A stretch of DNA of 64,000 nucleotides from Bacteroidia bacterium (GCA_965279165.1 OZ257140.1:166244-230243), one strand, 5' to 3'; counted from the first letter of the stretch, positions 24,979-57,200 are shown. Translations and numbers: made by a program. The notes: generated by a model from the letters alone, not told the origin.

Positions 24979-25047
24979 TTTTCCAATTGCAGATAGTCTG
25001 CCTGTGGGCAAATATATGTTTTTATAGCTTTTTACAAATTAATAAAT

Positions 25048-25158
25048 GAATTATGAGTTATGAGATATAAGATATGAGATATAAGATATGAGTTATAAGA
25101 TATGAGTTATAAGATATGAGTTATAAGATGTGAGTTATGAGATATGAGTTATGAGTGG
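25048..25158. repeat. Tandem 12-mer repeat (TATGAGTTATAAGA / TATGAGATATAAGA), about 9 units, in a divergent promoter region
   Basis: Direct reading. The same family appears reverse-complemented at 57134-57200. Confidence 0.9.
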
Positions 25159-25275: not shown

Positions 25276-27735
25276 TTGACGGATTCACTTGCCATATTTG
25301 TTCATGTAATTTTGCCATTGCCATTGCCAAAATTATACACCTACCGTGTTCCGAAGGATATGGAGAACAAGGTTTCGCGTGGCAAGCGTGTGGTGGTTCA
25401 ATTTGGAAAGAAAAAATTATATGCAGGGATTGTGCGGGATATGCAGGACTCCCCTCCTTCCGGATATGAAGCAAAATATATTCTGGATGTATTGGATGAA
25501 TTTCCATTGGTATCGGATGAAATGCTGCATTTTTGGGACTGGATTAGCAGTTATTATATGTGTTCGGTAGGTGACGTAATGCAGGCCGCCTTACCGGCTG
25601 CTTTTAAGCCCGAAAGTGAAACATCGGTATCCTTGCATCCCGAATTTGATTTACAGGATACGGCAATATTAGGCGACCAAGAGTACTTAGTAGTGGAAGC
25701 CCTTACCAAGCAAGAAGTTTTGCGTATTGAAGAATTGATGGAGATAACGCAACTGAAAAATGTGTTTCCCATGTTAAAGTCGCTGTTTCAAAAAGGGGCA
25801 ATTTTAATGCAAGAAGACTTAAAGCAATTGTATAAACCTAAATTTATTACCTGTATTCGGTTAACAGAATCCTATAAAGAACCTGCTGAACAGGAGAAAT
25901 TATTTAGCTTGTTAGAGAAAAAAACAGCCCAGATAAATTTGCTGATGGCGTATTTGGTTTTGAAAAATGAGCAACTTCATGTCGAGAAAAACACTTTAAT
26001 ACAAAGAAGTCAGTCGACCGACAGTCCGTTAAAAACATTGGTAACCAAAGGGGTTTTTGAACTTTATTCACTTCAAGTAGATCGGTTGCAAACCGAAGAA
26101 ACCCCAACAGATACCTTCACCTTAAACGAAGGACAATTGCAAGCCGTGAACCAAATTAAGGAACAATTTACCAAACAGGAAGTTGTGTTGTTACATGGTA
26201 TAACATCCAGTGGCAAAACCCATATTTATGTTAAATTGATTGAAGAGCAGATTGCACTTGGCAAGCAAGTATTGTTTTTATTACCTGAGATTGCACTCAC
26301 TTCACAAATTATATTCCGATTACGGAAATATTTTGGAGATAATGCAATTGCCTTCCATTCCCGATTTTCACAAAATGAGCGGGTAGAATTGTGGCATAAG
26401 GTTAAATCCAACGAGGTAAAAGTTATTATCGGTGCACGTTCAGCTGTGTTTTTACCATTTGAAAATCTTGGGTTGGTAATAGTAGACGAAGAACATGAAA
26501 CTTCTTATAAACAACACGATCCATCTCCACGTTACCATGCACGAGATGCTGCCATTTATCTGGCATACCAACGAAAATGCAAAACATTGTTAGGCTCTGC
26601 CACGCCATCCTTCGAAAGCTATTATAATGCGATGCAAGGAAAATATGGTTTCATCCACCTCTCTCAACGTTATGGCGACATAGAACCTCCCCAAATCGAA
26701 ACAGCAAATATTGCAGAAGAAACCCGGGTTAAAACCATGTATGGGCATCTTACTTCTGTATTGCACGAACGAATTAAAACTGCATTGGACAAAAACGAAC
26801 AAGTTATCTTGTTTCAGAATCGTCGCGGATATGCGCCCATCTTAGAATGTTTGCAATGCCACCATGTGCCGAAATGTAAAAATTGCGATATCAGTTTAAC
26901 CTACCATAAATACAACGACTTATTAAAATGTCATTATTGCGGGTATTCGGTATTGCGGATGAAAAACTGTGTTGCCTGTGGTTCACACGACTTAAATTTA
27001 AAAGGAATTGGCACAGAAAAAATTGAAGATGAATTACAAATATTTTTCCCGGAAGCAAGGATAGCTCGTTTGGATTTGGATTCGGCAAAAGGGAAAAATG
27101 GTCATTTCGAAATCATTCGAGGTTTTGAATCTCATGAATCGGATATTTTAGTGGGTACGCAAATGTTGAGTAAAGGACTTGATTTTGGCAATGTATCGGT
27201 TGTCGGCATTATCAATGCCGATCAGATGTTGTATTACCCTGATTTCAGGGCATACGAAAGGGCATTTCAGTTACTTACCCAAGTGGGAGGACGAGCAGGC
27301 AGAAAGAACAAACAAGGCAAAGTAATTATACAAACTTCGGTACCAAACCACCATGTAATTCAAGAAGTGATTCAACATCGGTATGATGTTTTGTATACCA
27401 ATACCATCGAAGAAAGAAAGCAATTTTATTATCCTCCGTATTCGCGGCTTATTAAAATAATAATCAAACACAAAGACATGCAATTGGCACATCAGGCTGC
27501 ATTTGATGTGTACCAAGGAGTTTTTAAACGCATGGGCGAACACCTTGTTGGTCCGGAGGCACCAACCGTTTCGCGGATAAAAAATTATTATATCCAGGAG
27601 ATTTTGGTTAAAATAGATCGGGAAAGCAAATACTTGCTTGCTTCCAAACAATTTATTGCCGGATGCATTCGCACCACTTTACAAAACGAACGGTTTAAGA
27701 AAGCGTATATTTATATGGATGTGGATCCGGTGTAG
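25276..27735 (+). CDS. priA: Primosomal protein N' (replication restart helicase)
   Basis: N-terminal 3'-binding domain (PLPLPKLYTYRVP). Helicase motifs: Walker A GITSSGKT, DEEH. Cys-rich zinc-binding insert (CxxC x4). Confidence 0.93.
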   Translation: MTDSLAIFVHVILPLPLPKLYTYRVPKDMENKVSRGKRVVVQFGKKKLYAGIVRDMQDSPPSGYEAKYILDVLDEFPLVSDEMLHFWDWISSYYMCSVGDVMQAALPAAFKPESETSVSLHPEFDLQDTAILGDQEYLVVEALTKQEVLRIEELMEITQLKNVFPMLKSLFQKGAILMQEDLKQLYKPKFITCIRLTESYKEPAEQEKLFSLLEKKTAQINLLMAYLVLKNEQLHVEKNTLIQRSQSTDSPLKTLVTKGVFELYSLQVDRLQTEETPTDTFTLNEGQLQAVNQIKEQFTKQEVVLLHGITSSGKTHIYVKLIEEQIALGKQVLFLLPEIALTSQIIFRLRKYFGDNAIAFHSRFSQNERVELWHKVKSNEVKVIIGARSAVFLPFENLGLVIVDEEHETSYKQHDPSPRYHARDAAIYLAYQRKCKTLLGSATPSFESYYNAMQGKYGFIHLSQRYGDIEPPQIETANIAEETRVKTMYGHLTSVLHERIKTALDKNEQVILFQNRRGYAPILECLQCHHVPKCKNCDISLTYHKYNDLLKCHYCGYSVLRMKNCVACGSHDLNLKGIGTEKIEDELQIFFPEARIARLDLDSAKGKNGHFEIIRGFESHESDILVGTQMLSKGLDFGNVSVVGIINADQMLYYPDFRAYERAFQLLTQVGGRAGRKNKQGKVIIQTSVPNHHVIQEVIQHRYDVLYTNTIEERKQFYYPPYSRLIKIIIKHKDMQLAHQAAFDVYQGVFKRMGEHLVGPEAPTVSRIKNYYIQEILVKIDRESKYLLASKQFIAGCIRTTLQNERFKKAYIYMDVDPV

Positions 27736-28107
27736 TACTTAGAGTTTTAGTACTAAGTGTTTTAGTATTTAAGTTGTGAGGGGAGCTTTCGGTTTCTTAA
27801 TAATGCTAATTTCAAGAATGGTGTTGAGGTCGCAGAAAATTTTGTAAACTGATTTCCAATGGAGAGTACCAGCATATATTAAAAATCCCGTCAGGGATTA
27901 AATATCGGTAGATTAAAAAGCAAAAGGATCGAATCCCGTTAGGGATTCAACATGGTGACGCGATAAAAGTTGTGTCGCAGGAAATTACACGTAAATTATC
28001 AATCCTTTCAAATAATAATGACCAAATACCAATTAATTCTAATTTGTAAAAACAAGGATTTTTTATTGGCGCCACTTAGTACTTAAACACCCAGCACTAA
28101 AACACTA
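27733..28107. repeat. MITE-like intergenic element bounded by imperfect inverted repeats (GTTTTAGTACTAAGTG ... CACTTAGTACTTAAAC) with internal AATCCCGTYAGGGATT hairpins
   Basis: Termini at 27733-27773 and 28072-28107 are near reverse complements. There are two AATCCC-GTYA-GGGATT hairpins at about 27893-27915 and 27925-27947. No ORF. Confidence 0.35.
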
Positions 28108-28193
28108 TCTCACTCAAACCTCAAATGCTTCACACTTTTACCTGAATCCCTAAGTTCGCAGAGGGAGTCAATGCCAATGCTGCGGTGTTTTAG
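28108..28193 (+). repeat. Dispersed element copy A (CTCACTCAAACCTCAAATGCTT ... TCAATGCCAATGCTNNGGTGTTTTA) with a central hairpin
   Basis: Shares both ends (22-26 bp each) with copy B at 29969-30055. The central parts differ but both fold (TCCCT...AGGGA here). Confidence 0.8.
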
Positions 28194-28401
28194 TTCATCT
28201 TAAATTAAAAAATTGGTATTCAAAATTTCAATATCAATTGATATTTATCTTGAATTCGATAAGGTTACAAATAATTCATCATAACAACTAGTAATTTGCC
28301 TCTTAAGTTTTGATATCCAATTTAGCATTTTACCTAAACACACTTTAATAAACGCCTTAAAAAAACTATAAATTGTCTATATTTGAGAAACCAATACTAA
28401 T

Positions 28402-28641
28402 ATGACCACTACCATTCTCAAAAACGAAATAACAAAAGCGCTAAGTGACATTAACGACAAGTCATTTTTAGAAGGACTGTATACTATAATTAATGCACAT
28501 GCAGATAAGTTAGCATTTGAACTGAGTGACGAAAATTGGCGCGAAATTGAGGGCAGGAAACGAGATTACAAATCTGGAAAATTGAAAGGATTAACAATGG
28601 TAGATGTTCGCAAGAAGGTAATGAAAAAACTTGCTACATGA
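28402..28641 (+). CDS. Putative antitoxin (addiction-module component, ParE-partner family)
   Basis: 79 aa. Ends ...RKRDYKSGKLKGLTMVDVRKKV, typical of the small antitoxins paired with ParE/RelE toxins. 4-bp overlap with the downstream toxin gene. Confidence 0.6.
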   Translation: MTTTILKNEITKALSDINDKSFLEGLYTIINAHADKLAFELSDENWREIEGRKRDYKSGKLKGLTMVDVRKKVMKKLAT

Positions 28642-28940
28642 AATGTCGTGTCATTGTTCTTGAGCCTGCCGCGGAGGAGCTTGTTGATGCTGCAATGTAT
28701 TACGACTCGAAGCAGACCGGTTTGGGGATTGCATTATTAGAAGAATGGGATGAATCGCTTATTCAGATTCAACGATCACCAGAAGGATATCAAAAGAAAA
28801 AGAAGAATTTTCGCCAGGCTCGATTAAACCGATTTCCATATCTGATTATTTTTGAAATTGAAGGTTCGGATATTTTTATTAACTCTTTTATTGATGCTCG
28901 AAGACATCCAAATAAACGCTACGCAAAAAAGAAGAAATAA
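28638..28940 (+). CDS. Type II toxin-antitoxin system RelE/ParE family toxin
   Basis: 100 aa. Motif FPYLIIFEIEGSDIFINSFIDARRHP matches the ParE/RelE core. Confidence 0.7.
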   Translation: MKCRVIVLEPAAEELVDAAMYYDSKQTGLGIALLEEWDESLIQIQRSPEGYQKKKKNFRQARLNRFPYLIIFEIEGSDIFINSFIDARRHPNKRYAKKKK

Positions 28941-29089
28941 TCTTGGAATTAATATGGTTGCTGAATAACTTCAACACACAATAAGCAGCAAATTACGGTA
29001 CGATTCAAATACATCAAGATTCATCCATCATAGTTTTAGAAGGAGGTTTGTAACATTCAACTACATACAAATCCTCGTGTGAAAATTGA

Positions 29090-29722
29090 TTACTGTTTTA
29101 ACCATATTTCATTAGAATTGAATTTAACTTTTAATATTCCATACATAGGATTGTATAATAAAGAAGGAAGACTATCCTGTCCATCACCAAAAAGAGTTAG
29201 TCCATAGTACAATTTACCATTAATGCTAACACTATCATTGAAATCCAATGAATCACTAATTCCAGCCAAAATATAACCATCAAATAATAAATAATCATTC
29301 ACTTTAATATCTATTGCAGCAAAATAATTCCCATTCGAATAATACCCAACTGGTATATAAATTTTATATTCCAACATGTTTAATGAATGTTTAATATCTG
29401 CCTTAAAGGAATTTCTAATATTTTCATAATAATGTTCCGGTCCTTTACATTCGGGATAGATACCTGTTGTTTCGATATAATATTCATAGTATTTATACTT
29501 GTCTTTGCCAATTAATATTGCTGTATCTCCATTTGTACTAACATAAGTAAGCGTATCTTTTCCTAAAAAGGATATTAAACTTTTAGACTTCTCTGAAATA
29601 TTATAATAAGTAGGTGGAGAATAATAATCATCACAATCAACCTTAGATTCAGTAATACAAGAACTGGTATTAATCAATACAAATAAAGCCATAACAATCT
29701 GTTTGGTCAGTGGTGATTTCAT
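29090..29722 (-). CDS. Hypothetical lipoprotein
   Basis: Start chosen at MKSPLTKQIVMALFVLINTSSC (signal peptide plus lipobox Cys). Tyr/Asn-rich. No recognisable domain. Confidence 0.5.
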   Translation of the reverse strand: MKSPLTKQIVMALFVLINTSSCITESKVDCDDYYSPPTYYNISEKSKSLISFLGKDTLTYVSTNGDTAILIGKDKYKYYEYYIETTGIYPECKGPEHYYENIRNSFKADIKHSLNMLEYKIYIPVGYYSNGNYFAAIDIKVNDYLLFDGYILAGISDSLDFNDSVSINGKLYYGLTLFGDGQDSLPSLLYNPMYGILKVKFNSNEIWLKQ

Positions 29723-29890
29723 CACGTAATTTTTTGTAATTTTTAAAGTAAAGGTTTCAAACCATTTTTCAAAATCCTGGGTAATAATACCATTAAGTAT
29801 ACCTATCAAAATTAATTATTCTAGCAAATTTTTTATTTAAAAAAACAGATCCAAGAAAGAGACAATATCAATGATATTCATTTAACGAGT

Positions 29891-29968
29891 CACTTCAACA
29901 CATTAACACTTCAACACCTTAACACTTCAACACTCGTCCACCGTAGCATTTGCGAAGGTGGGCAACAC
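29891..29968. repeat. Tandem CACTTCAACAC 11-mers followed by a conserved 38-bp core (ACTCGTCCACCGTAGCATTTGCGAAGGTGGGCAACAC)
   Basis: The core reappears reverse-complemented at 57013-57050, next to GTGTTGAGGTGTTAAA tandem units. Confidence 0.85.
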
Positions 29969-30055
29969 CTCACTCAAACCTCAAATGCTTTACGCTCTCG
30001 CCGGAGTCGCGAAGCTCGCGAAGTGAATCAATGCCAATGCTAAGGTGTTTTAATA
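29969..30055 (+). repeat. Dispersed element copy B (same family as 28108-28193)
   Basis: Conserved ends CTCACTCAAACCTCAAATGCTTTAC and ATCAATGCCAATGCTAAGGTGTTTTA. Central TCGCGA-AGC-TCGCGA hairpin. It overlaps the last 20 codons of the minus-strand nucleoside phosphorylase gene. Confidence 0.8.
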
Positions 30056-30743
30056 CAAATTTTTCGGTTACCGTTTTATCGCTTTTCGAAGTCTTCACTC
30101 CTTCCGGAATCATCGGATTATCGCTTACCAATAACAATGCTCCTTTAGGAATTCCATTGACAAAACCAACGGTAAAAATGGTGGCTGTTTCCATGTCGAT
30201 AGCTAGTGCCCTTAATTTTTTCAGATAGGTTTTAAATTCTTCATCGTGTTCCCAAACCCTGCGATTAGTAGTATATACGGTACCAGTCCAATAATCGGTT
30301 TTATATTTTACGATGGTCGACGAAACAGCTTTTTGTAAACGAAACGATGGCAATGCCGGGACTTCCGGAACCATATAATCGTCGCTGGTACCTTCTCCTC
30401 TGATAGCTGCAATAGGCAATATCATGTCACCTAGTTTGGTTATTTTTTTCAGTCCGCCACATTTACCCAAAAACAAAACTGCCTCAGGAGTAATTGCCAA
30501 TAACAAATCCATGCAAGTGGCTGCCATGGCGCTTCCCATTCCAAAATTAATAATGGTAATACCTTCGTGGGTGGCAGTTTGCATTGGCTTGTCGCGCCCC
30601 ATTACAGGCACATTAAATTTGTTTGCGAAAAGTTCTACATATTGAATAAAATTGGTTAGTAAGATATATTTACCAAACGATTTCAAGGGTATTCCGGTGT
30701 ATCGAGGTAACCAGTCTTTTACAATTTCTTCTTTGCTTATCAT
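29970..30743 (-). CDS. Nucleoside phosphorylase superfamily protein (short AMP nucleosidase-like)
   Basis: PNP/UDP phosphorylase fold pattern (GMGSAMAAT, DMETA). The C-terminal 20 aa are encoded inside repeat copy B. Confidence 0.65.
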   Translation of the reverse strand: MISKEEIVKDWLPRYTGIPLKSFGKYILLTNFIQYVELFANKFNVPVMGRDKPMQTATHEGITIINFGMGSAMAATCMDLLLAITPEAVLFLGKCGGLKKITKLGDMILPIAAIRGEGTSDDYMVPEVPALPSFRLQKAVSSTIVKYKTDYWTGTVYTTNRRVWEHDEEFKTYLKKLRALAIDMETATIFTVGFVNGIPKGALLLVSDNPMIPEGVKTSKSDKTVTEKFVLKHLSIGIDSLRELRDSGESVKHLRFE

Positions 30744-32220: not shown

Positions 32221-32272
32221 ATTGGATGAATAAATGAGTAAATATGTAAATGAGTAAATGAGTAAATGTGGT
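32221..32272. repeat. Tandem 7-8-mer repeat (GTAAATGA/GTAAATAT), 5 units
   Basis: Direct reading. Lies in the promoter region of T9SS paralogue 1. Confidence 0.8.
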
Positions 32273-44253: not shown

Positions 44254-45600
44254 ATGTTTAAAAAAATACTTATTGCCAATAGAGGAGAAATAGCACTTCG
44301 TGTTATCCGAACGGCCAAGGAAATGGGAATAAAAACCGTTGCCGTTTACTCAACAGCAGATAAAGAAAGTTTACATGTACGTTTTGCGGATGAGGCAGTT
44401 TGTATAGGACCTCCACCCTCGCCGCAATCCTATCTCAATATGGCTAATATTATTGCCGCTGCCGAAATTACCAATGCAGACGCCATTCATCCGGGTTATG
44501 GATTTTTAAGTGAGAATGCAAAATTCTCACAAGTTTGTCGCGACCATGGTATTAAATTTATTGGTGCGTCGCCGGAAATGATCAATGCGATGGGTGATAA
44601 AGCCAATGCAAAAGCTACAATGAAACGTTCTGGTGTTCCTGTAATTCCGGGCTCTGAAGGATTATTGGAAAGTGCGGAAGAAGGTATCCGCTTGGCAGAA
44701 GGTATCGGTTATCCGGTTATCATCAAAGCAACGGCAGGTGGTGGCGGACGTGGAATGCGCATCATATGGAATGCCGAAGAGTTTGAGAAACATTGGGATT
44801 CGGCCCGTCAGGAATCGAAAGCTGCTTTCGGTAATGATGGCATGTATATGGAAAAATATGTGGAAGAACCACGTCATATCGAAATACAGTTAGCCGGCGA
44901 CCAATACGGCAATGTTTGTCATTTGAGCGAACGTGATTGTTCGATACAACGGAGACATCAAAAACTGGTTGAAGAAGCTCCTTCCCCATTTGTAACTCCT
45001 GAATTACGCGACAAAATGGGAGCTGCAGCCATTGCAGGTGCCAAAGCAATTAATTATGAAGGATTGGGTACGATAGAATTTTTGGTAGACAAACACCGTA
45101 ATTTCTATTTCATGGAAATGAATACCCGTATTCAGGTAGAACATCCGGTAACCGAAGAAGTAATCAATTATGATTTGGTTAAAGAACAGATTTTAATTGC
45201 GGCAGGTGTTCCAATTAGCGGTAGAAATTATCTCCCGGTGAAACACGCCATCGAATGTCGTATCAATGCCGAAGATCCTTTCAACAATTTCAGACCAACC
45301 CCAGGCAGGATAGATTATTTACATAAGCCAGGTGGACACGGTGTTCGTGTGGATACACATATATACGCAGGATATACCATTCCTTCGAATTACGATTCGA
45401 TGATTGCCAAACTGATTGTGTGTGCCCAAACCCGTGAAGAAGCCATTATTAAGATGGACCGTGCCTTAAGCGAATTCATTATTGAAGGTCCGGGAATTAA
45501 AACCACCATTCCATTACAAATTAAATTAATGCAAAACGAAGATTTTAAAGCCGGGAATTTTACAACGGCGTTTATGAATACGTTTGATATTAATAAATAG
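44254..45600 (+). CDS. accC: Acetyl-CoA carboxylase biotin carboxylase subunit
   Basis: ATP-grasp motifs. Canonical start [20 protein letters not shown]. Confidence 0.95.
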
Positions 45601-45650
<50 letters not shown>

Positions 45651-48136: not shown

Positions 48137-48153
48137 TATAAGTAAGATATTTG

Positions 48154-48440
48154 GATCTTGAGTTGCAAACTCAAGATAGCGGGGGCTTGGTTCTTGTGGT
48201 GTTTGGAGTTTAGTACGATTAGATTTTTTATAATAACGAGTTAAGTTTATCGGCAATAACACGTGTGTTGCTTAAACGAGGTACTTTGTTTTGTCCGCCT
48301 AGCTTACGAATTAATGGAGATAATCTAAGTTAGGTATTTGATCTTGAGTTGGAAACACAAGATAGCCGTGAGCTTACGAATTAATGGAGTATATTTATTA
48401 AAGTGATTTGATTGAAATTGAGTTACAAACACAAGATAGC
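48154..48440. repeat. Three copies of a hairpin-containing 27-bp repeat (GATCTTGAGTTGCAAACTCAAGATAGC and two variants) interleaved with AGCTTACGAATTAATGGAG x2
   Basis: Copies at 48154-48180 (perfect CTTGAGTT-GCAA-AACTCAAG hairpin), 48340-48366 and 48416-48440. Confidence 0.85.
48264..48304 (+). repeat. Left direct repeat of islet 2 (duplicate of GH3 gene 3' end)
   Basis: GTGTGTTGCTTAAACGAGGTACTTTGTTTTGTCCGCCTAGC. About 93% identical to 50147-50190. Its reverse complement encodes LGGQNKVPRLSNTR, matching the GH3 C-terminus. Confidence 0.85.
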
Positions 48441-48579
48441 ACAGGGCGGAGGTAAATAGCACATCACATTATATTTGATAATTTTCAGTTGTTTCATTAA
48501 AAATAAACAATAGTTTTACTTATCAGTTTTAACTTAATTTATCATAGTTTGTTCCTTAAAATAACTAATTATTTTTAAT

Positions 48580-49293
48580 ATGAAATTTATTAAAAGTTTA
48601 TTTAAACCAAAAAATATCTACTTCAGGATAAACATGGATATTATTGAGTTTCCTGAAGGCTGGACTCCTAAACTGGCAATACTTATTAGAAATTTGACCG
48701 AATTCGAAAAAAGAATTATTATTAATATACTCAGAATTTTACAAAGACACCTTGAACGACATTTTGTATTTTGGATGAAATTCGAATTTACAAGAATCAA
48801 GTTCAATAATGATCAATCCATTTTATTCAGAAGTTACTTTGAATTAATAATGATTGACTGGACGATAATAAGTTCTGAATTCACCAAAAGAGAAATTAGA
48901 TCTGAAGTGGGAAAATCGTTGTGGTGGATTCTATATTACTCATTTGATGGATATGACTCTATGTTATATTCTAAAAAAGTATTCAGGAACTATGAGGCAG
49001 CTTTTGAAGATAGAAGGCAACTTTATCCAGGAATATTAACGAAATTATTTAGTACTGAAAGTAGTCAAAATTTAAATTCATTAAAAATCCTTTATATTTT
49101 ATTAGTTGTGAATCCATTAGAAATTGACAAAGGTAACTTTGAAAACCAACCAAATGAACTTAAAGATCACCAAGATTTTAGTGAAATGGAAAATTGGTTC
49201 GAAAACAGATTGAATTTGTTAACTTTTGGACAAGTATTTGGAAAATCTTTAAATCACCTGAAGAGTGAAATAAATAAATTGCAATTTAAATAA
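48580..49293 (+). CDS. Hypothetical protein in AT-rich islet (237 aa)
   Basis: ORF in a segment of clearly lower GC than its surroundings. No recognisable domain. Contains RHLERH. Confidence 0.55.
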   Translation: MKFIKSLFKPKNIYFRINMDIIEFPEGWTPKLAILIRNLTEFEKRIIINILRILQRHLERHFVFWMKFEFTRIKFNNDQSILFRSYFELIMIDWTIISSEFTKREIRSEVGKSLWWILYYSFDGYDSMLYSKKVFRNYEAAFEDRRQLYPGILTKLFSTESSQNLNSLKILYILLVVNPLEIDKGNFENQPNELKDHQDFSEMENWFENRLNLLTFGQVFGKSLNHLKSEINKLQFK

Positions 49294-49388
49294 TAATGAA
49301 TCTGCTTTTCAATTAAGTTGTTCATTCAAGAAGGTTTGCCAATGATTTTTTTATTTGATAAATTCACAAAACAATTGAAATTCATATA

Positions 49389-49874
49389 ATGGGAAATTTT
49401 AAAGACTTAGAATCTGAGTTTATTGAACGGACATTGCGCCTTCTTTCACAGTATGAGGGTATAACTTACAAATACAAATTTGAAGAACAATTTAATCACA
49501 CTTTGCTTGTAAACTGTTTACTTGGATTAATTGTATTACCAAAAGAAAAGACTATTATTTATTTGCCAAATACAACCTGGAGTATGGAGTTGAAAACCAA
49601 AATGGGCATAGAAAATTCAACATTTAACAAAAATATCACTAATCTAAAAGATTTGATAATTGCATTACGACATACTGTTGCACACTTTGACATCACATTT
49701 GAATCAAAAAGTGATGAGTTTTTAATTGACTTTATAGTTTTTAAGGATAGAAAGAAAGGAAAAAACTATGTTGTCGCTTCCTTTGTACCATTAGAACTGA
49801 TTTGTTTTCTTCGATACTATGGTAATTGGTTAGTAAGTATAATTCGTGAACATCAAGGAAATATTAAATCTTAA
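49389..49874 (+). CDS. Hypothetical protein with HEPN-like Rx4H motif (161 aa)
   Basis: ALRHTVAHFD resembles the Rx4-6H motif of HEPN/Abi-type RNases. Small alpha-helical protein in the AT-rich islet. Confidence 0.5.
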   Translation: MGNFKDLESEFIERTLRLLSQYEGITYKYKFEEQFNHTLLVNCLLGLIVLPKEKTIIYLPNTTWSMELKTKMGIENSTFNKNITNLKDLIIALRHTVAHFDITFESKSDEFLIDFIVFKDRKKGKNYVVASFVPLELICFLRYYGNWLVSIIREHQGNIKS

Positions 49875-50106
49875 AATACAAATTGTTAAATAATTTAGTG
49901 AGATAAAGAAATACTTATATTTTTGTCACAAACTCATCTAGCTTAACGTAACTGTTTTTATTTCAGAGATTTTAAGACAGACTTCTATTTCGCCTATTGA
50001 TTGATAAAAGTCACTTTTTAACATCAAATTTTATCTAGGTATATATGTTGTTTAAATAACTAAAATTAATTTTAAGGTTGCGAGATAAAGTGTACATTAA
50101 ATACAT

Positions 50107-51603
50107 CTAATTTAAATAAGATTGGAGTTTATCTGCTATCGATCGTGTGTTGCTTAAACGCGGTACTTTGTTTTGTCCGCCGAGCTTTCCCTCCTGCTTC
50201 ATGTATTGAATAAATGTAGATTTCTGTAGTGACCTAATTTTTAATGGCTGTAGGATATTACCGGCAATTAAATCTTTGTAGTATATGTTTCGTTCTTGCA
50301 TTTTCACATCTACTTCCTTTGCGAATGAATGAATATCGTCGGGTTTGTTTTCAAATTCAACAAACCATTCGTGGTATGGTAAACCTCCCTCAGGTGGATT
50401 AACTTGTGGAGCAACAGTAAACTCTATAATATTGATTTTGTATTTATTTGCTACCGAAAGCAAGGCCTGTTCTACCTCTTCGCCGATTACATGTTCGCCG
50501 AATGCGGAAATAAAATGCTTGATTCGTCCGGTAACAACAATACGAGGCGGATTAAGCGAAACAAATTTAATGGTATCGCCAATACTGTAACCGAAGAGTC
50601 CGGCATTGGTATTCATGATAAGGGCATAATTACAATCCAGCTTTACTTCTCCAAGGTGTAACCGGGCAGGATTTGGGTTGAAATATTCTTCCGTAGGAAT
50701 GAATTCATAAAAGATGCCGTTGTTGGTCAACAGCAACAAACCCTTCTCTTCACGGGTATCCTGATAGGCAATAAATCCTTCGGAAGCCGGATAGGTTTCG
50801 AGGGTATCAATCCTGGTTCCTATGGCATTTTCGATCTTAGCCCGATAGGGTTCAAAATTTACCCCACCATACACAAAAAGTTTAAAGTTGGGAAAAACAT
50901 CCTTTATTTTCTTTCCAGTTAGTGAAGTTATTTTATCGAAATACATCTGCACCCAAGGCGGAATACCACTTATCAATGTCATGTTTTGGTGGATGGTTTC
51001 GTTTACCACCGCATCCACTTTTTCTTCCCAATCCTCGATACAATTTGTAGGAAACGAAGGCAACTGATTTCCTTTTAGGTAACCCGGCACATGGTGGTTT
51101 ACGATACCACTTAATCGTCCAACCGGAATACCATTTTTGGATTCCAATGCCGGACTACCGGATAAAAATATCAGTTTACCATTTAAAAAATCTGCTTTAC
51201 CGGTTTCGGCGATATATGCTAGCAAAGCGTTTCGAGCCGATTGAATATGAAACGGAATAGAATCCTTGGTGATAGGAATATATTTTACTCCGGAAGTAGT
51301 ACCTGAAGTCTTGCTCCAATAAGCCGGTTTGCCGGGCCAAAGGATATCCGCTTTGCCGGAAATTGCTTCATCGATATATGGTTTTAAATCTTCGTAATCA
51401 ATAACCGGGACTTGTTGTTTAAAATCATCATATGTTTTAATGGTTTGAAATGAATGATCGATTCCAAATTTTGTTTGAGAGGCAATGGCAACCAATTTAT
51501 GCATCCAATCCAATTGAAAGGAAACAGCTATGGCGCTTTGCCGTTTTACCTTGTTGGTTATAAAACGAGCAAATGGTATGGCCAGAATTGATTTTAAACC
51601 CAT
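50107..51603 (-). CDS. GH3 family (acyl-adenylate-forming, auxin-responsive-GH3-like) protein
   Basis: KTSGTTSG adenylation motif and overall GH3 architecture. Start at MGLKSIL. An alternative upstream Met lies at 51630. Confidence 0.8.
   Translation of the reverse strand: MGLKSILAIPFARFITNKVKRQSAIAVSFQLDWMHKLVAIASQTKFGIDHSFQTIKTYDDFKQQVPVIDYEDLKPYIDEAISGKADILWPGKPAYWSKTSGTTSGVKYIPITKDSIPFHIQSARNALLAYIAETGKADFLNGKLIFLSGSPALESKNGIPVGRLSGIVNHHVPGYLKGNQLPSFPTNCIEDWEEKVDAVVNETIHQNMTLISGIPPWVQMYFDKITSLTGKKIKDVFPNFKLFVYGGVNFEPYRAKIENAIGTRIDTLETYPASEGFIAYQDTREEKGLLLLTNNGIFYEFIPTEEYFNPNPARLHLGEVKLDCNYALIMNTNAGLFGYSIGDTIKFVSLNPPRIVVTGRIKHFISAFGEHVIGEEVEQALLSVANKYKINIIEFTVAPQVNPPEGGLPYHEWFVEFENKPDDIHSFAKEVDVKMQERNIYYKDLIAGNILQPLKIRSLQKSTFIQYMKQEGKLGGQNKVPRLSNTRSIADKLQSYLN
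50147..50190 (+). repeat. Right direct repeat of islet 2 (native 3' end of GH3 gene)
   Basis: CGTGTGTTGCTTAAACGCGGTACTTTGTTTTGTCCGCCGAGCTT overlaps the last 14 codons of the GH3 CDS. Confidence 0.85.
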
Positions 51604-51860
51604 AAAACAAAGGTGCAAATTGTGTATCAATATTTAACTATCGCTTTTTCGAAATAATTCAAATTTGATTGTTTGGGCTATTTTAGCTACTCAGGTTTAA
51701 GTACTAAATGTTCTGGTACTGTGTGTTTAGTTATCGTGTTGCATCAATTGCATTTACAAAGCATTATATGAGGGATATTTCGCCCTTTCAGGGCTTTGAA
51801 CTTCGGTTGTACTTTTTACATCCGGCTACACCGGATGTTTAGAAATGTCGCCCTAACAGG

Positions 51861-53155: not shown

Positions 53156-54724
53156 ATGGTAAACCTGACACATTATTTTAGGTCCTATTCCTACCGTTAC
53201 AGCAGCTTTGCATTTCTGCTTAGCATTGTGTTTATCTGGTGGCATGGATACCTGTTTAATACAGGCGACCAAGCCGAGCATTTACCACAGGTATATGCCA
53301 TGCTGGATCCAACCCTGTATCCAAATGATTTTTTTCTAAGTTTATACAACCAAACTTTTACGGTAAGGGAATATTGGGTTTGGTTGGTATATGGAGTAGC
53401 AATTGCTATTGGTGTAGAAACAGGTTGTTTTATGCTTTATTTGGTATGTGTGTATTTAACCATTTATGCCTGGATGTTGATTACCCGGCATATTACAGAA
53501 AATGCATTTGCTCCGTTTATTGTTCCGGTTTTACTTTTCTTTATATTCAATTCATTTACTGTTGGCGGAAACACCTTACTTGTAAATTCATTTGTTGGAA
53601 CGATACCGGCAGAGGCATTAGCTAGTTGGGCCATCTTATTCGGACTTAAAAATTCGCCTTATAAAAGTGCCATATTACTCGGAATTGCAGGACTATTTCA
53701 ACTGTTGGTTGGATTGCATGTTTTTATACTTATCAGTATTGTTCAATTAACTTTTGTAACCAATTCGAGATCCTTTTTTAAGTTCGTTAAACAATATTTG
53801 GTTTTCGGATTGGTTGTATCGCCAATGGCATTACCTATTTTCTACCGACAATTATTTGTACCGGTTTCAAGCGAAGACCTCTCCGTATTTTATCAAACCT
53901 TGTATTACCAGCGAGCACCTTGGCATTATATACCTTCTCTATTTTCAATTAAAGATTATCTGCGTTTAATTGGATTGGCTCTATTAGGATTAATTGCCAT
54001 ACGAAAACTGAGAAGCAATGCGCGTTTATATGAAATTAAAATAACAGGTATCGTTATTATCTTCGGTTGTTTATTGTATGAAATTGCATTGGAATGGTTA
54101 GGAATTTCATCCGTTGGAAAATGGCAATGGTTTAAAACTACCGTATGGCTAAATGCCTTGAGCTGTGTTTTAATTGGCGGTGCAATAGCACAATTTGCGG
54201 GATTAAAAGAGCAGGTAAGTCGGAAAGGTAGATTATGGAATATTGTATTTCTGGTTTCGGGAATGACAGGATTGTTATGGCTCACTCAAACAGAAATACT
54301 ATTACCGGAAAAAATAAGTAACCGTTATCAAATTGGAAATTATAAAAAAACCGACTTGCAAAAAATGCACGCTTGGATATCGGATAGCACATCAAAACAA
54401 AGTTGTTTTTTAATTCCACCGGATAACGAATCTTTTGGATGTGAAGCCAAACGCGCTACTCCGGTTAACTATAAGGCATTGGTACATGAAGCATTTTACT
54501 TTAAAGCTTGGAGGGAAGGCATGGAACGATATTATAAGGTCGATTTTGAAGCGGTTGGGAATAATCCTGTATTGCCAATAGCAGTTAGTAATTATTATGC
54601 CTATCCTATTAATTCAACAATGGATATTGAATATCAATTATGCAATCAAAAGTTGATGAAACATCAATGGAATAAACCCAATATTGTGCATCAGGAAGGA
54701 ATTTGGGTTTTGTTAAAGAAATAA
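53156..54724 (+). CDS. Polytopic integral membrane protein (about 12 TM helices, unknown function; possible glycosyltransferase-C-like)
   Basis: Many hydrophobic helices and a C-terminal soluble domain. The C-terminus QEGIWVLLKK* is copied in degenerate form inside the downstream repeat array. Confidence 0.5.
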   Translation: MVNLTHYFRSYSYRYSSFAFLLSIVFIWWHGYLFNTGDQAEHLPQVYAMLDPTLYPNDFFLSLYNQTFTVREYWVWLVYGVAIAIGVETGCFMLYLVCVYLTIYAWMLITRHITENAFAPFIVPVLLFFIFNSFTVGGNTLLVNSFVGTIPAEALASWAILFGLKNSPYKSAILLGIAGLFQLLVGLHVFILISIVQLTFVTNSRSFFKFVKQYLVFGLVVSPMALPIFYRQLFVPVSSEDLSVFYQTLYYQRAPWHYIPSLFSIKDYLRLIGLALLGLIAIRKLRSNARLYEIKITGIVIIFGCLLYEIALEWLGISSVGKWQWFKTTVWLNALSCVLIGGAIAQFAGLKEQVSRKGRLWNIVFLVSGMTGLLWLTQTEILLPEKISNRYQIGNYKKTDLQKMHAWISDSTSKQSCFLIPPDNESFGCEAKRATPVNYKALVHEAFYFKAWREGMERYYKVDFEAVGNNPVLPIAVSNYYAYPINSTMDIEYQLCNQKLMKHQWNKPNIVHQEGIWVLLKK

Positions 54725-55400
54725 TCACGAGCGTGACGCTCGCGAGAACGGAGCGTGACGCTGACTAATAATACGTGAGGCCTAAATTTATTTAATAATC
54801 ACGAGCGTGACGCTCGCGAGAACGGAGAGCGTGACGCTGACTAATAATACGTGAGGCCTAAATTTATTTAATAATCACGAGCGTGACGCTCGCGGGAACG
54901 AAGAAGGCGAATGGGTGTTGTTAAAGAAATAACCACGAGCGTGACGCTCGCGGGAACGGGGAAGGCGAATGGGTGTTATTTAGGAAGTAATCACGAGCGT
55001 GACGCTCGCGAGAACCGTCACATAGAAAGCACTATTATTCAAAACGAATCACGAGCGTGACGCTCGCGAGAACGGATTATCAATTATGCAAGCATGACTT
55101 GGTAAAGTATGCACTTGATGAAACTAAGGTGGTACATCGGGAAGGCAAATGGGTGTTGTTAAAGAAATAACCACGAGCGCGACGCTCGCGGGAACGGGGA
55201 AGGCGAATGGGTGTTATTTAGGAAGTAATCACGAGCGTGACGCTCGCGAGAACCGTCACATAGAAAGCACTATTATTCAAAACGAATCACGAGCGTGACG
55301 CTCGCGAGAACGGGTGTTTTAAAATTAATCTCGAACGTGACGCTTTCGGAGACGGTTGTAGATTAGACATTAATCACGAGCGTGACGTTCGCGGGAACGG
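54723..55400. repeat. Array of 11 copies of a 29-bp palindromic repeat AATCACGAGCGTGACGCTCGCGAGAACGG separated by 13-95-bp segments, several of them duplicated
   Basis: Repeat starts at 54723, 54797, 54873, 54931, 54989, 55047, 55169, 55227, 55285 and, more degenerate, 55327 and 55372. It contains the nested palindromes CGAGCG-TGA-CGCTCG and CTCGCGAG. Segments S1 and S2 are about the same, S4 equals S7, and S5 equals S8. S3, S4, S6 and S7 resemble the upstream gene's 3' end. Confidence 0.9.
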
Positions 55401-55478
55401 TTGAGCGTAAGGCTAGTTGCACAACTTTTGGCGGAAAACTTTGGACTGATCACTTTTCCTTATCTTTGCCCTTTTACT

Positions 55479-57012: not shown

Positions 57013-57100
57013 AAGTGTTGCCCACCTTCGCAAATGCTACGGTGGACGAGTGTTGAGGTGTTGAAGTGTTGAGGTGTTAAAGTGTTGAGGTGTTAAAGTA
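57013..57100. repeat. Conserved 38-bp core (reverse complement of 29931-29968) plus GTGTTGAGGTGTTAAA tandem units
   Basis: GTGTTGCCCACCTTCGCAAATGCTACGGTGGACGAGTGTTGA followed by 4-5 tandem 8-mers. Begins at the stop codon of the FtsX gene. Confidence 0.85.
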
Positions 57101-57133: not shown

Positions 57134-57200
57134 CTTATATCTTATATCTTATAACTTATATCTTATATCTTATAACTTATAACTTATATCTCATAACTCC
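57134..57200. repeat. Tandem 12-mer repeat (CTTATATCTTATAA-type), reverse complement of the 25048-25158 family
   Basis: Direct reading. It overlaps the stop codon of the minus-strand PhyH-like gene (…EEL* is encoded by GAGTTATGAG). Confidence 0.9.

Follow-up and report, generated by a model that had tools for sequence, protein, structure and literature searches.

The 64,000-nt stretch of a Bacteroidia bacterium genome analysed here (GCA_965279165.1 OZ257140.1:166244-230243; the window) carries a small islet between the convergent genes priA and amn. To the left, priA (25276-27735, plus strand) encodes the primosomal helicase, with the Pfam domains PriA_3primeBD, DEAD, Zn_ribbon_PriA and PriA_C; to the right, amn (29970-30743, minus strand) encodes a short-form AMP nucleosidase of 257 aa that matches NCBIfam PRK07115 over its full length (E = 9e-126) and contains the Pfam domain PNP_UDP_1. 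The islet is located at the 3′ end of amn, has a GC content of 31% compared with 38% for the window, and holds a putative toxin–antitoxin (TA) pair and a putative lipoprotein gene. A preliminary description drawn from the sequence had placed an accessory islet between priA and a nucleoside phosphorylase gene, and had noted directly oriented repeats, at 28108-28193 and 29969-30055, that bracket an antitoxin/ParE pair and a lipoprotein gene. The positions of the open reading frames (ORFs) bear this bracketing out, and the repeats are confirmed with slightly different limits. The islet is most likely a toxin–antitoxin and lipoprotein unit recombined in beside amn, a fairly ordinary route of gene gain that is cleanly documented at this locus.

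The direct repeat is 89 nt long at 80% identity, and its copies A (28109-28197) and B (29969-30057), both read on the minus strand, start 1,860 bp apart. Copy B makes up the functional end of amn, namely its last 28 codons and its stop codon, inside the ORF at 29970-30743; its translation, which runs through VLKHLSIGIDSLRELRDSGESVKHLRFE to the stop, is the Amn C-terminus and agrees with the family consensus ending in ELRDSGESVKHLRFE and a stop in 73 relatives. Copy A, translated in the strand and register of amn, reads ELKHRSIGIDSLCELRDSGKSVKHLRFE followed by a stop. It comprises 27-28 codons with a TGA stop at 28110-28112, it has no upstream reading frame, stop codons lying immediately upstream, and it is found with Amn as the query in a tblastn search of the islet at E = 6e-11. 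Copy A can be assigned with near certainty as an orphaned amn tail on the basis of its register and its similarity to Amn.

Comparison of the two copies revealed 18 base differences in 15 codons, 11 of which are changed synonymously and four non-synonymously. Eighteen random substitutions would be expected to alter 12 ± 1.6 residues, whereas only four are altered (P < 2e-5). Proportions of differing synonymous and non-synonymous sites calculated by the Nei-Gojobori method are pS = 0.73 and pN = 0.076 (pN/pS = 0.10), so that the synonymous sites of the two amn ends are approximately 70% different while the protein is nearly unchanged. Because the differences are mostly synonymous, the divergent centres of the copies reflect selection that acted on the protein and not on the structure of RNA or DNA.

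This bears on the earlier view of the repeats as copies of a dispersed 90-bp element with shared termini and a variable centre, in which both copies form hairpins under selection for structure, perhaps as a small RNA or a recombination site. The copies are the amn 3′ end and an orphaned version of it, and the 22-mer CTCACTCAAACCTCAAATGCTT occurs exactly twice in the window, with no match in viral or metagenome contig collections. Mapping the repeat, which the preliminary description had advised for the genome, thus gives two copies in the window, those that flank the TA and lipoprotein islet. Neither copy, on either strand, folds better than its dinucleotide shuffles (z = +0.86, -0.41, +0.27 and +0.51), neither has a match in Rfam, and the shared termini are not significant as an architecture, since permuting the 18 differences gives an identical run as long as the longest one observed, 21 nt, in 7% of cases (P = 0.07). 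What stands from this view is recombination, in that the flanking repeats form a recombination scar; the structured element does not.

Gene order in related genomes supports the accessory nature of the islet. A scan of species-representative genomes with Amn yielded 80 loci (best protein identity 84%), all from Bacteroidota and mostly from freshwater metagenome-assembled genomes (MAGs). At none of these is there a second amn tail within 6 kb. In two of them, L025 and L004, priA lies downstream of amn, and the content of the junction differs from that of the window in both, as the proposal of an islet had led one to look for: L025 has a single amn tail with priA abutting it, tail to tail, at a gap of 7 bp, while a histidine kinase gene separates priA from amn in L004. 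With protein identities of only ~80% (Amn) and 61% (PriA), L025 is not a same-species empty site. No tRNA genes or Rfam families were detected in the window.

Ahead of the TA genes lies TATATTTG (28378-28385, plus strand), a promoter motif of the Bacteroidota -7 type. The promoter consensus of Bacteroidetes is TAnnTTTG, by which this motif can be read as the putative promoter of the TA operon, and TATATTTGAGAAAC is the first block conserved between this cassette and that of L081, described below. An antitoxin candidate of 79 aa (28402-28641, plus strand) is followed by a predicted ParE/RelE-family toxin of 100 aa (28638-28940, plus strand), with a 4-nt overlap (ATGA) of the antitoxin stop and the toxin start. 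As in known ParDE and RelE modules, a small upstream antitoxin gene overlaps that of a toxin of ~100 aa, and the toxin family matches both Pfam PF05016 (4/4 members, best E = 2.5e-9) and, as a profile, the ParE2 structure PDB 8c26 (E = 1.7e-4). Unlike in such modules, the window toxin itself scores 17 bits against PF05016, where the cut-off is 23 bits, and the antitoxin candidate matches no family other than TIGR02574 (‘addiction module component’), at E = 9e-4 and below the curated cut-off; this candidate is kept beside the toxin in L081, L083, L084 and L086. Plasmid homologues of the toxin, from cyanobacteria and Desulforapulum, are distant (31-36% identity) and annotated RelE/ParE, and no viral homologues of the toxin were found. 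By family and operon layout, the pair is predicted to be a ParE/RelE-type type II TA module.

The putative lipoprotein gene (29090-29722, minus strand) is on the same strand as amn and encodes 210 aa from an ATG, or 239 aa from an upstream TTG at 29809. Its product has a signal peptide and a Cys (N-terminus MKSPLTKQIVMALFVLINTSSC), gave no match in Pfam, NCBIfam or PADLOC, and has two weak homologues only (P0006 and P0007), whose genomic context is uninformative. The GC content at third codon positions (GC3) of the gene is 0.19. PADLOC did not match any of the cargo proteins, and there is no integrase among the three islet ORFs by Pfam and NCBIfam. Deletion of the islet between the repeats would free the toxin, so the TA pair would penalise loss, and it probably helps the islet to persist.

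The same arrangement is found at other loci. The closest toxin homologue (P0002, 65% identity) is encoded in L081 (CAYMRD010000005.1, 9457-10500), where the TA pair, in a cassette of 871 bp, is located between a START-domain gene and an RF-1-domain (ArfB-like) gene; this locus comes from the same MAG as L025, the priA–amn junction of which is empty. L081 has a direct repeat of 173 nt (86% identity), which on the right forms the 3′ end of the RF-1 gene and on the left an orphan tail. The stops of this orphan and the convergent START gene overlap, an arrangement that appears to be the original, tail-to-tail one. Its frame and stop are kept over 57 codons, with 15 synonymous and eight non-synonymous codons, compared with 19.6 ± 2 amino-acid changes expected. 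Alignment of the window and L081 cassettes revealed homology only from the promoter block TATATTTGAGAAAC to the toxin stop and no shared ends.

A TA pair with 42% identity lies beside a DUF4159 gene in L086, a metagenome contig (Ga0194060_10002415, 3202-5508). The repeat here is 33 nt (94% identity) and corresponds to the last 10 codons and stop of the convergent DUF4159 gene. A gene for a 172-aa membrane protein after the TA pair is a paralogue (24% identity, BLASTP E = 4e-5) of a gene for 171 aa that lies upstream of the orphan tail, and the entire neighbourhood seems to have arrived, as a diverged copy, along with the cassette. The end of the repeat lies no more than 2 nt from the stop codon at each of the three TA loci. 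No convincing flanking repeat was detected on the short contigs L083 and L084, and none is present at ~18 toxin loci that are more distant, which means that the scar does not characterise the ParE family as a whole. On a further short contig that is GC-rich (L092; Ga0100379_10065693, 858-1844), a ParE pair lies among three same-strand copies of a gene fragment of ~100 nt, with the peptide RHLLETDG.T.RFRHRL.QAYF; insertion may have occurred repeatedly here and produced an array.

A repeat search of the whole window revealed a second islet at 48137-50187, with an orphan tail at 48220-48305 and a real gene end at 50102-50187 (86 nt, 78% identity). The orphan reads KLGGQNKVPRLSNTRVIADKLNSLL followed by a stop, against SIADKLQSYLN and stop at the end of a GH3-family gene (50107-51630; E = 4e-9), and is located just after a convergent lipB gene. 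Its cargo consists of an ORF of 237 aa without a family, at 48580-49293, and, at 49389-49874, a HEPN pEK499_p136 nuclease (Pfam E = 1e-26). Homologues of this nuclease (64% identity) are found in L111-L116 directly downstream of a tyrosine integrase and next to tRNA-Ser (for example L111, 3432-7892); these loci also carry a polyphosphate-nuclease-like gene and a relaxase, which makes them an NBU-like mobilisable element with the same type of cargo. All four cases thus have a common layout, in which a neighbouring gene reading rightwards is followed by an orphan tail reading leftwards, cargo reading rightwards, and the intact gene reading leftwards. Two local features were also observed at the second islet. 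A hairpin unit of ~40 nt (ending in GATCTTGAGTTGSAAACWCAAGATAGC) occurs three times within 48141-48440, once after the lipB stop and twice just inside the islet, and the junction motif AGCTTACGAATTAATGGAG is duplicated (48301-48342 and 48371-48412), pointing to tandem duplication at this site or to two events in succession.

Between the priA stop and copy A lies a spacer of 373 bp (27736-28108), which had been described as a 370-bp segment resembling a miniature inverted-repeat transposable element (MITE). Its inverted-repeat ends are genuine (27733-27759 and 28073-28099; 27 nt, 81% complementary), as are its two AATCCC hairpins, and the spacer folds strongly (z = -4.56). The arms are tracts of 15-nt tandem units of the GTGTTTTAGTACTAA and GTGTTTTAGT types, one following the priA stop and the other, in inverse orientation, located after the stop at which the orphan amn tail ends; the inverted repeat is explained by post-stop tracts of one kind at the ends of two convergent genes. 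There is no target-site duplication (flanks ccggtg / aaacac for the long arms and cttagag / acccagc for the arms first proposed), and no second copy of the spacer in the window or in 110 fetched loci. The spacer is therefore most probably resident, as the intergenic region between the convergent genes priA and amn with its post-stop repeat tracts, and not a transposable element. The AATCCCGTYAGGGATT hairpins at 27884-27899 and 27932-27947 (two seen, 0.12 expected by chance) coincide with two terminator-like hairpins with T-tails that a terminator scan places on the minus strand downstream of copy A (27884-27951; 27899→27884 and 27951→27928), and look like terminators on the amn strand.

A further element occupies 29887-29968 (minus strand), directly after the amn stop, and consists of a hairpin, CCACCTTCGCAAATGCTACGGTGG, and 2.7 units of GTGTTGAAGTGTTAAN. 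It recurs at 57014-57097 (plus strand) with 87% identity, the first 46 nt being nearly identical, after the stop of an FtsX-like permease gene. The element begins 1-4 nt after both stops, and GTGTTGAR tandem units, related to those in the arms of the spacer, follow the functional amn stop as well as that of the FtsX-like gene. The truly dispersed element at this locus hence adjoins copy B and is not inside it; it could be terminator-like or similar to repetitive extragenic palindromic (REP) sequences. Elsewhere in the window, 11 copies of a GC-rich hairpin repeat, AATCACGAGCGTGACGCTCGCGAGAACGG, lie between two genes at 54705-55401 with a spacing of 42-122 nt; the segments between them are themselves repeated (173-nt units, 99% identity), so the array is not CRISPR-like. 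Intergenic tandem arrays of 7-8-nt or 14-nt units were observed at 25046-25152, 32226-32268, 45598-45642 and 57134-57195 (for example ATGAGTTATAAGAT × 7.6 and CTTATAT × 8.9), and appear to be general in this genome.

The coding nature of the repeats allows their origin to be addressed. Calculated in the same way for each locus, pN/pS is 0.10 for amn, 0.17 for the RF-1 gene, 0.19 for the GH3 gene and 0 for the DUF4159 gene. The pooled value for the four loci is 0.14 (pS = 0.52), which rejects both ω = 1 (P = 1e-13) and ω = 0.5 (P = 9e-7), the latter being the expectation for an in-place duplication with one neutrally decaying copy. This indicates that the tails diverged mostly inside working genes of different lineages, and hence that one tail arrived with the cargo. 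As judged from these substitution patterns, the two amn ends are alleles from diverged lineages and not products of an in-place duplication.

Which of the two tails is resident is indicated less uniformly. Copy A adjoins the spacer and is followed on the amn strand by the two terminator-like hairpins, which favours copy A as the resident end. The recurrence elsewhere in the genome of the repeat at 29887-29968, which follows the functional stop, favours the opposite polarity or a later event. DNA identity to the 73 relatives is uninformative on the native copy (53 and 56 of 87 nt for the two copies), and GC3 is 0.56 in the last 25 amn codons, within the top ~5% of background windows, but with 0.48 it is high in copy A as well, and composition does not decide between them.

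A mechanism is proposed where the islet was produced by homology-facilitated illegitimate recombination. Donor DNA from a diverged relative would have carried the 3′ portion of amn, then the lipoprotein gene and the ParE-type TA operon. A homologous crossover inside amn would have served as the anchor, and the far end of the donor would have undergone an illegitimate join to the resident amn, somewhere in its final ~90 nt. The incoming 3′ end would then have completed amn, and the resident 3′ end, with its terminators and spacer, would have been left as a displaced, dead fragment. Since priA and amn lie tail to tail with almost no spacer, a join in the redundant resident tail would be among the few harmless positions, and this constraint would explain why the scar is a tail of variable length that ends at the stop codon. 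We infer the crossover and the junction from the final arrangement, and assign this reading a probability of roughly 0.6.

Several observations count against it. Neither the donor nor a close empty-site strain was found, and the crossover and the junction were not seen directly. A sliding-window search for a mosaic of amn against its relatives detected none, although this test has no power because all of the relatives are only ~75% identical at the DNA level. The first 46 nt of the flank at 29887-29968 are nearly identical to those of the other genomic copy, which is odd for a donor with 70% synonymous divergence; a donor-derived flank carrying a local repeat needs a later insertion or conversion of that repeat, or else a reversed polarity. 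The orientation of the cargo is common to all four cases, a feature that is not predicted by the model. They were, moreover, found starting from one toxin family and one window, and do not amount to an unbiased survey.

The principal competitor, which we consider unlikely, is a decayed integrative element: a tyrosine or serine recombinase would have inserted a larger element at the amn 3′ end through an attP that mimics the gene tail, and the integrase and most of the element would later have been deleted, leaving the TA pair, the lipoprotein gene and attL/attR-like repeats. Some islands insert into the 3′ ends of tRNA genes or guaA, and the topology at amn is the classical one, with a gene 3′ end as direct repeats, one of which completes the gene, and with AT-rich cargo; the homologues of the HEPN cargo do ride integrase-plus-relaxase elements in Bacteroidota. 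Those elements, however, sit at tRNA-Ser and not at the tail of a protein gene. A recombinase is missing from all four inserts, which measure 0.9-1.9 kb, and a Bacteroidota tyrosine integrase probe (tblastn) found nothing in the window, L081 or L086. The occurrence of repeats of 33, 86, 89 and 173 nt in four different target genes, with homology shared only from promoter to toxin stop and no common cassette ends, argues against a site-specific element with a fixed attB, and the copies at amn lack a significant identical core. A Campbell-type event, in which a small circle with the cargo and a short amn tail enters by a single RecA-dependent crossover within the ~89 nt, making both repeats hybrid and allowing pop-out and re-entry in a selfish cycle, would give the same final structure and account for a xenologous repeat copy, and a virus-like cycle has been proposed for repeat-flanked restriction–modification units (PMC2853133). 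We regard it as appreciably less probable than a decayed element: homology this short and diverged (33 nt in L086; 89 nt at 80% with a longest identical run of 21 nt here) is a poor crossover substrate and speaks against a single crossover within it, no circular or tandem form was seen, and neither the viral nor the metagenome contigs contain the 22-mer.

In-place tandem duplication of the amn tail, with cargo inserted between the copies and neutral decay of one of them, is the simplest route to a direct repeat, and the orphan does have a few non-synonymous changes (4/28 codons). It predicts pN/pS of ~0.5, which is rejected by the observed 0.10 at amn and by the pooled estimate, and so it is very improbable. 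The reading of the preliminary description, in which the 90-bp units are a mobile or structured non-coding element kept for its hairpin and the 370-bp segment is a MITE, is largely refuted and now hardly tenable. It fits an accessory islet flanked by direct repeats, and the inverted-repeat ends and strong folding of the spacer; against this, the units exist as two copies only in the window, both in-frame amn tails with synonymous divergence that fold no better than shuffles and are absent from Rfam, and the inverted repeat of the spacer, which has neither a target-site duplication nor a second copy in the window or the fetched loci, consists of post-stop tracts. A bolder alternative is that conflict-gene cassettes in these Bacteroidota use a dedicated integrase-free route aimed at the tails of convergent gene pairs, in which post-stop repeats (GTGTT tracts and islet-edge hairpins) and a recombinase acting in trans may take part. 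This is speculative and we think it improbable, on a par with or slightly ahead of the Campbell-type event; if true, a systematic consequence of such a route would be an allele-like orphan tail at the promoter side of the cassette, and the ‘long target duplication’ of restriction–modification units would be one case of a general, mechanistically distinct pathway.

Homology-facilitated illegitimate recombination, the mechanism favoured here, places the event among those of an already known kind. It has been modelled for the orphan 3′ fragments of Rhs, CDI (contact-dependent growth inhibition) and T6SS (type VI secretion system) effector loci (Kirchberger et al. 2017, PMC5361080), a paper that cites de Vries & Wackernagel 2002 and Prudhomme et al. 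2002. The features in common would be one homologous anchor in a conserved gene region, an illegitimate join, an incoming 3′ module that takes over the gene and an old end pushed downstream. The anchors here are instead housekeeping genes (amn, the RF-1-domain gene, GH3 and DUF4159), and what would have arrived is a synonymous tail with unrelated cargo and no new toxic C-terminus, across a junction deduced from the final structure.

The second point of comparison is what has been called, for restriction–modification units, ‘insertion with long target duplication’ (Nobusato et al. 2000; Furuta, Abe & Kobayashi 2010, PMC2853133), defined by an insert of <20 kb, a direct repeat of >30 bp and no mobility genes. 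The direct repeats of those inserts measure 46-423 bp and correspond to one sequence where the site is empty, and some overlap the 3′ end of a gene (PMC2853133). The islet at amn falls within this definition (1,860 bp start to start, an 89-bp repeat and no mobility genes). It differs in its cargo, a ParE-type TA pair (with a HEPN nuclease in the second islet), and in its Bacteroidota host; in addition, the repeats here are 78-94% identical with pN/pS of 0.14, as for displaced alleles and not for a target duplication. Integrase islands at gene or tRNA 3′ ends, such as the NBU-type elements of Bacteroidota, are similar in that AT-rich accessory genes lie between direct repeats formed by the 3′ end of a gene, which itself stays intact, but here there is no integrase, the target is not fixed and the length of the repeat varies.

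The recurrence at four loci and the pN/pS evidence add to what is known of such events. The integrase-free pattern of insertion with long repeats is extended from restriction–modification units to ParE TA and HEPN cargo and to Bacteroidota. The comparison also corrects a tempting misreading, as conserved ends with variable hairpin centres turn out to be a coding sequence diverging synonymously, and it provides a diagnostic for an imported allele versus a target duplication: the repeat is translated in the frame of the adjacent gene and pN/pS is computed. This suggests that at least some ‘duplications’ are displaced alleles left behind by one-sided homologous recombination. Two such scars within 64 kb are a hint that small accessory islets at the junctions of convergent genes could commonly arise in this way.

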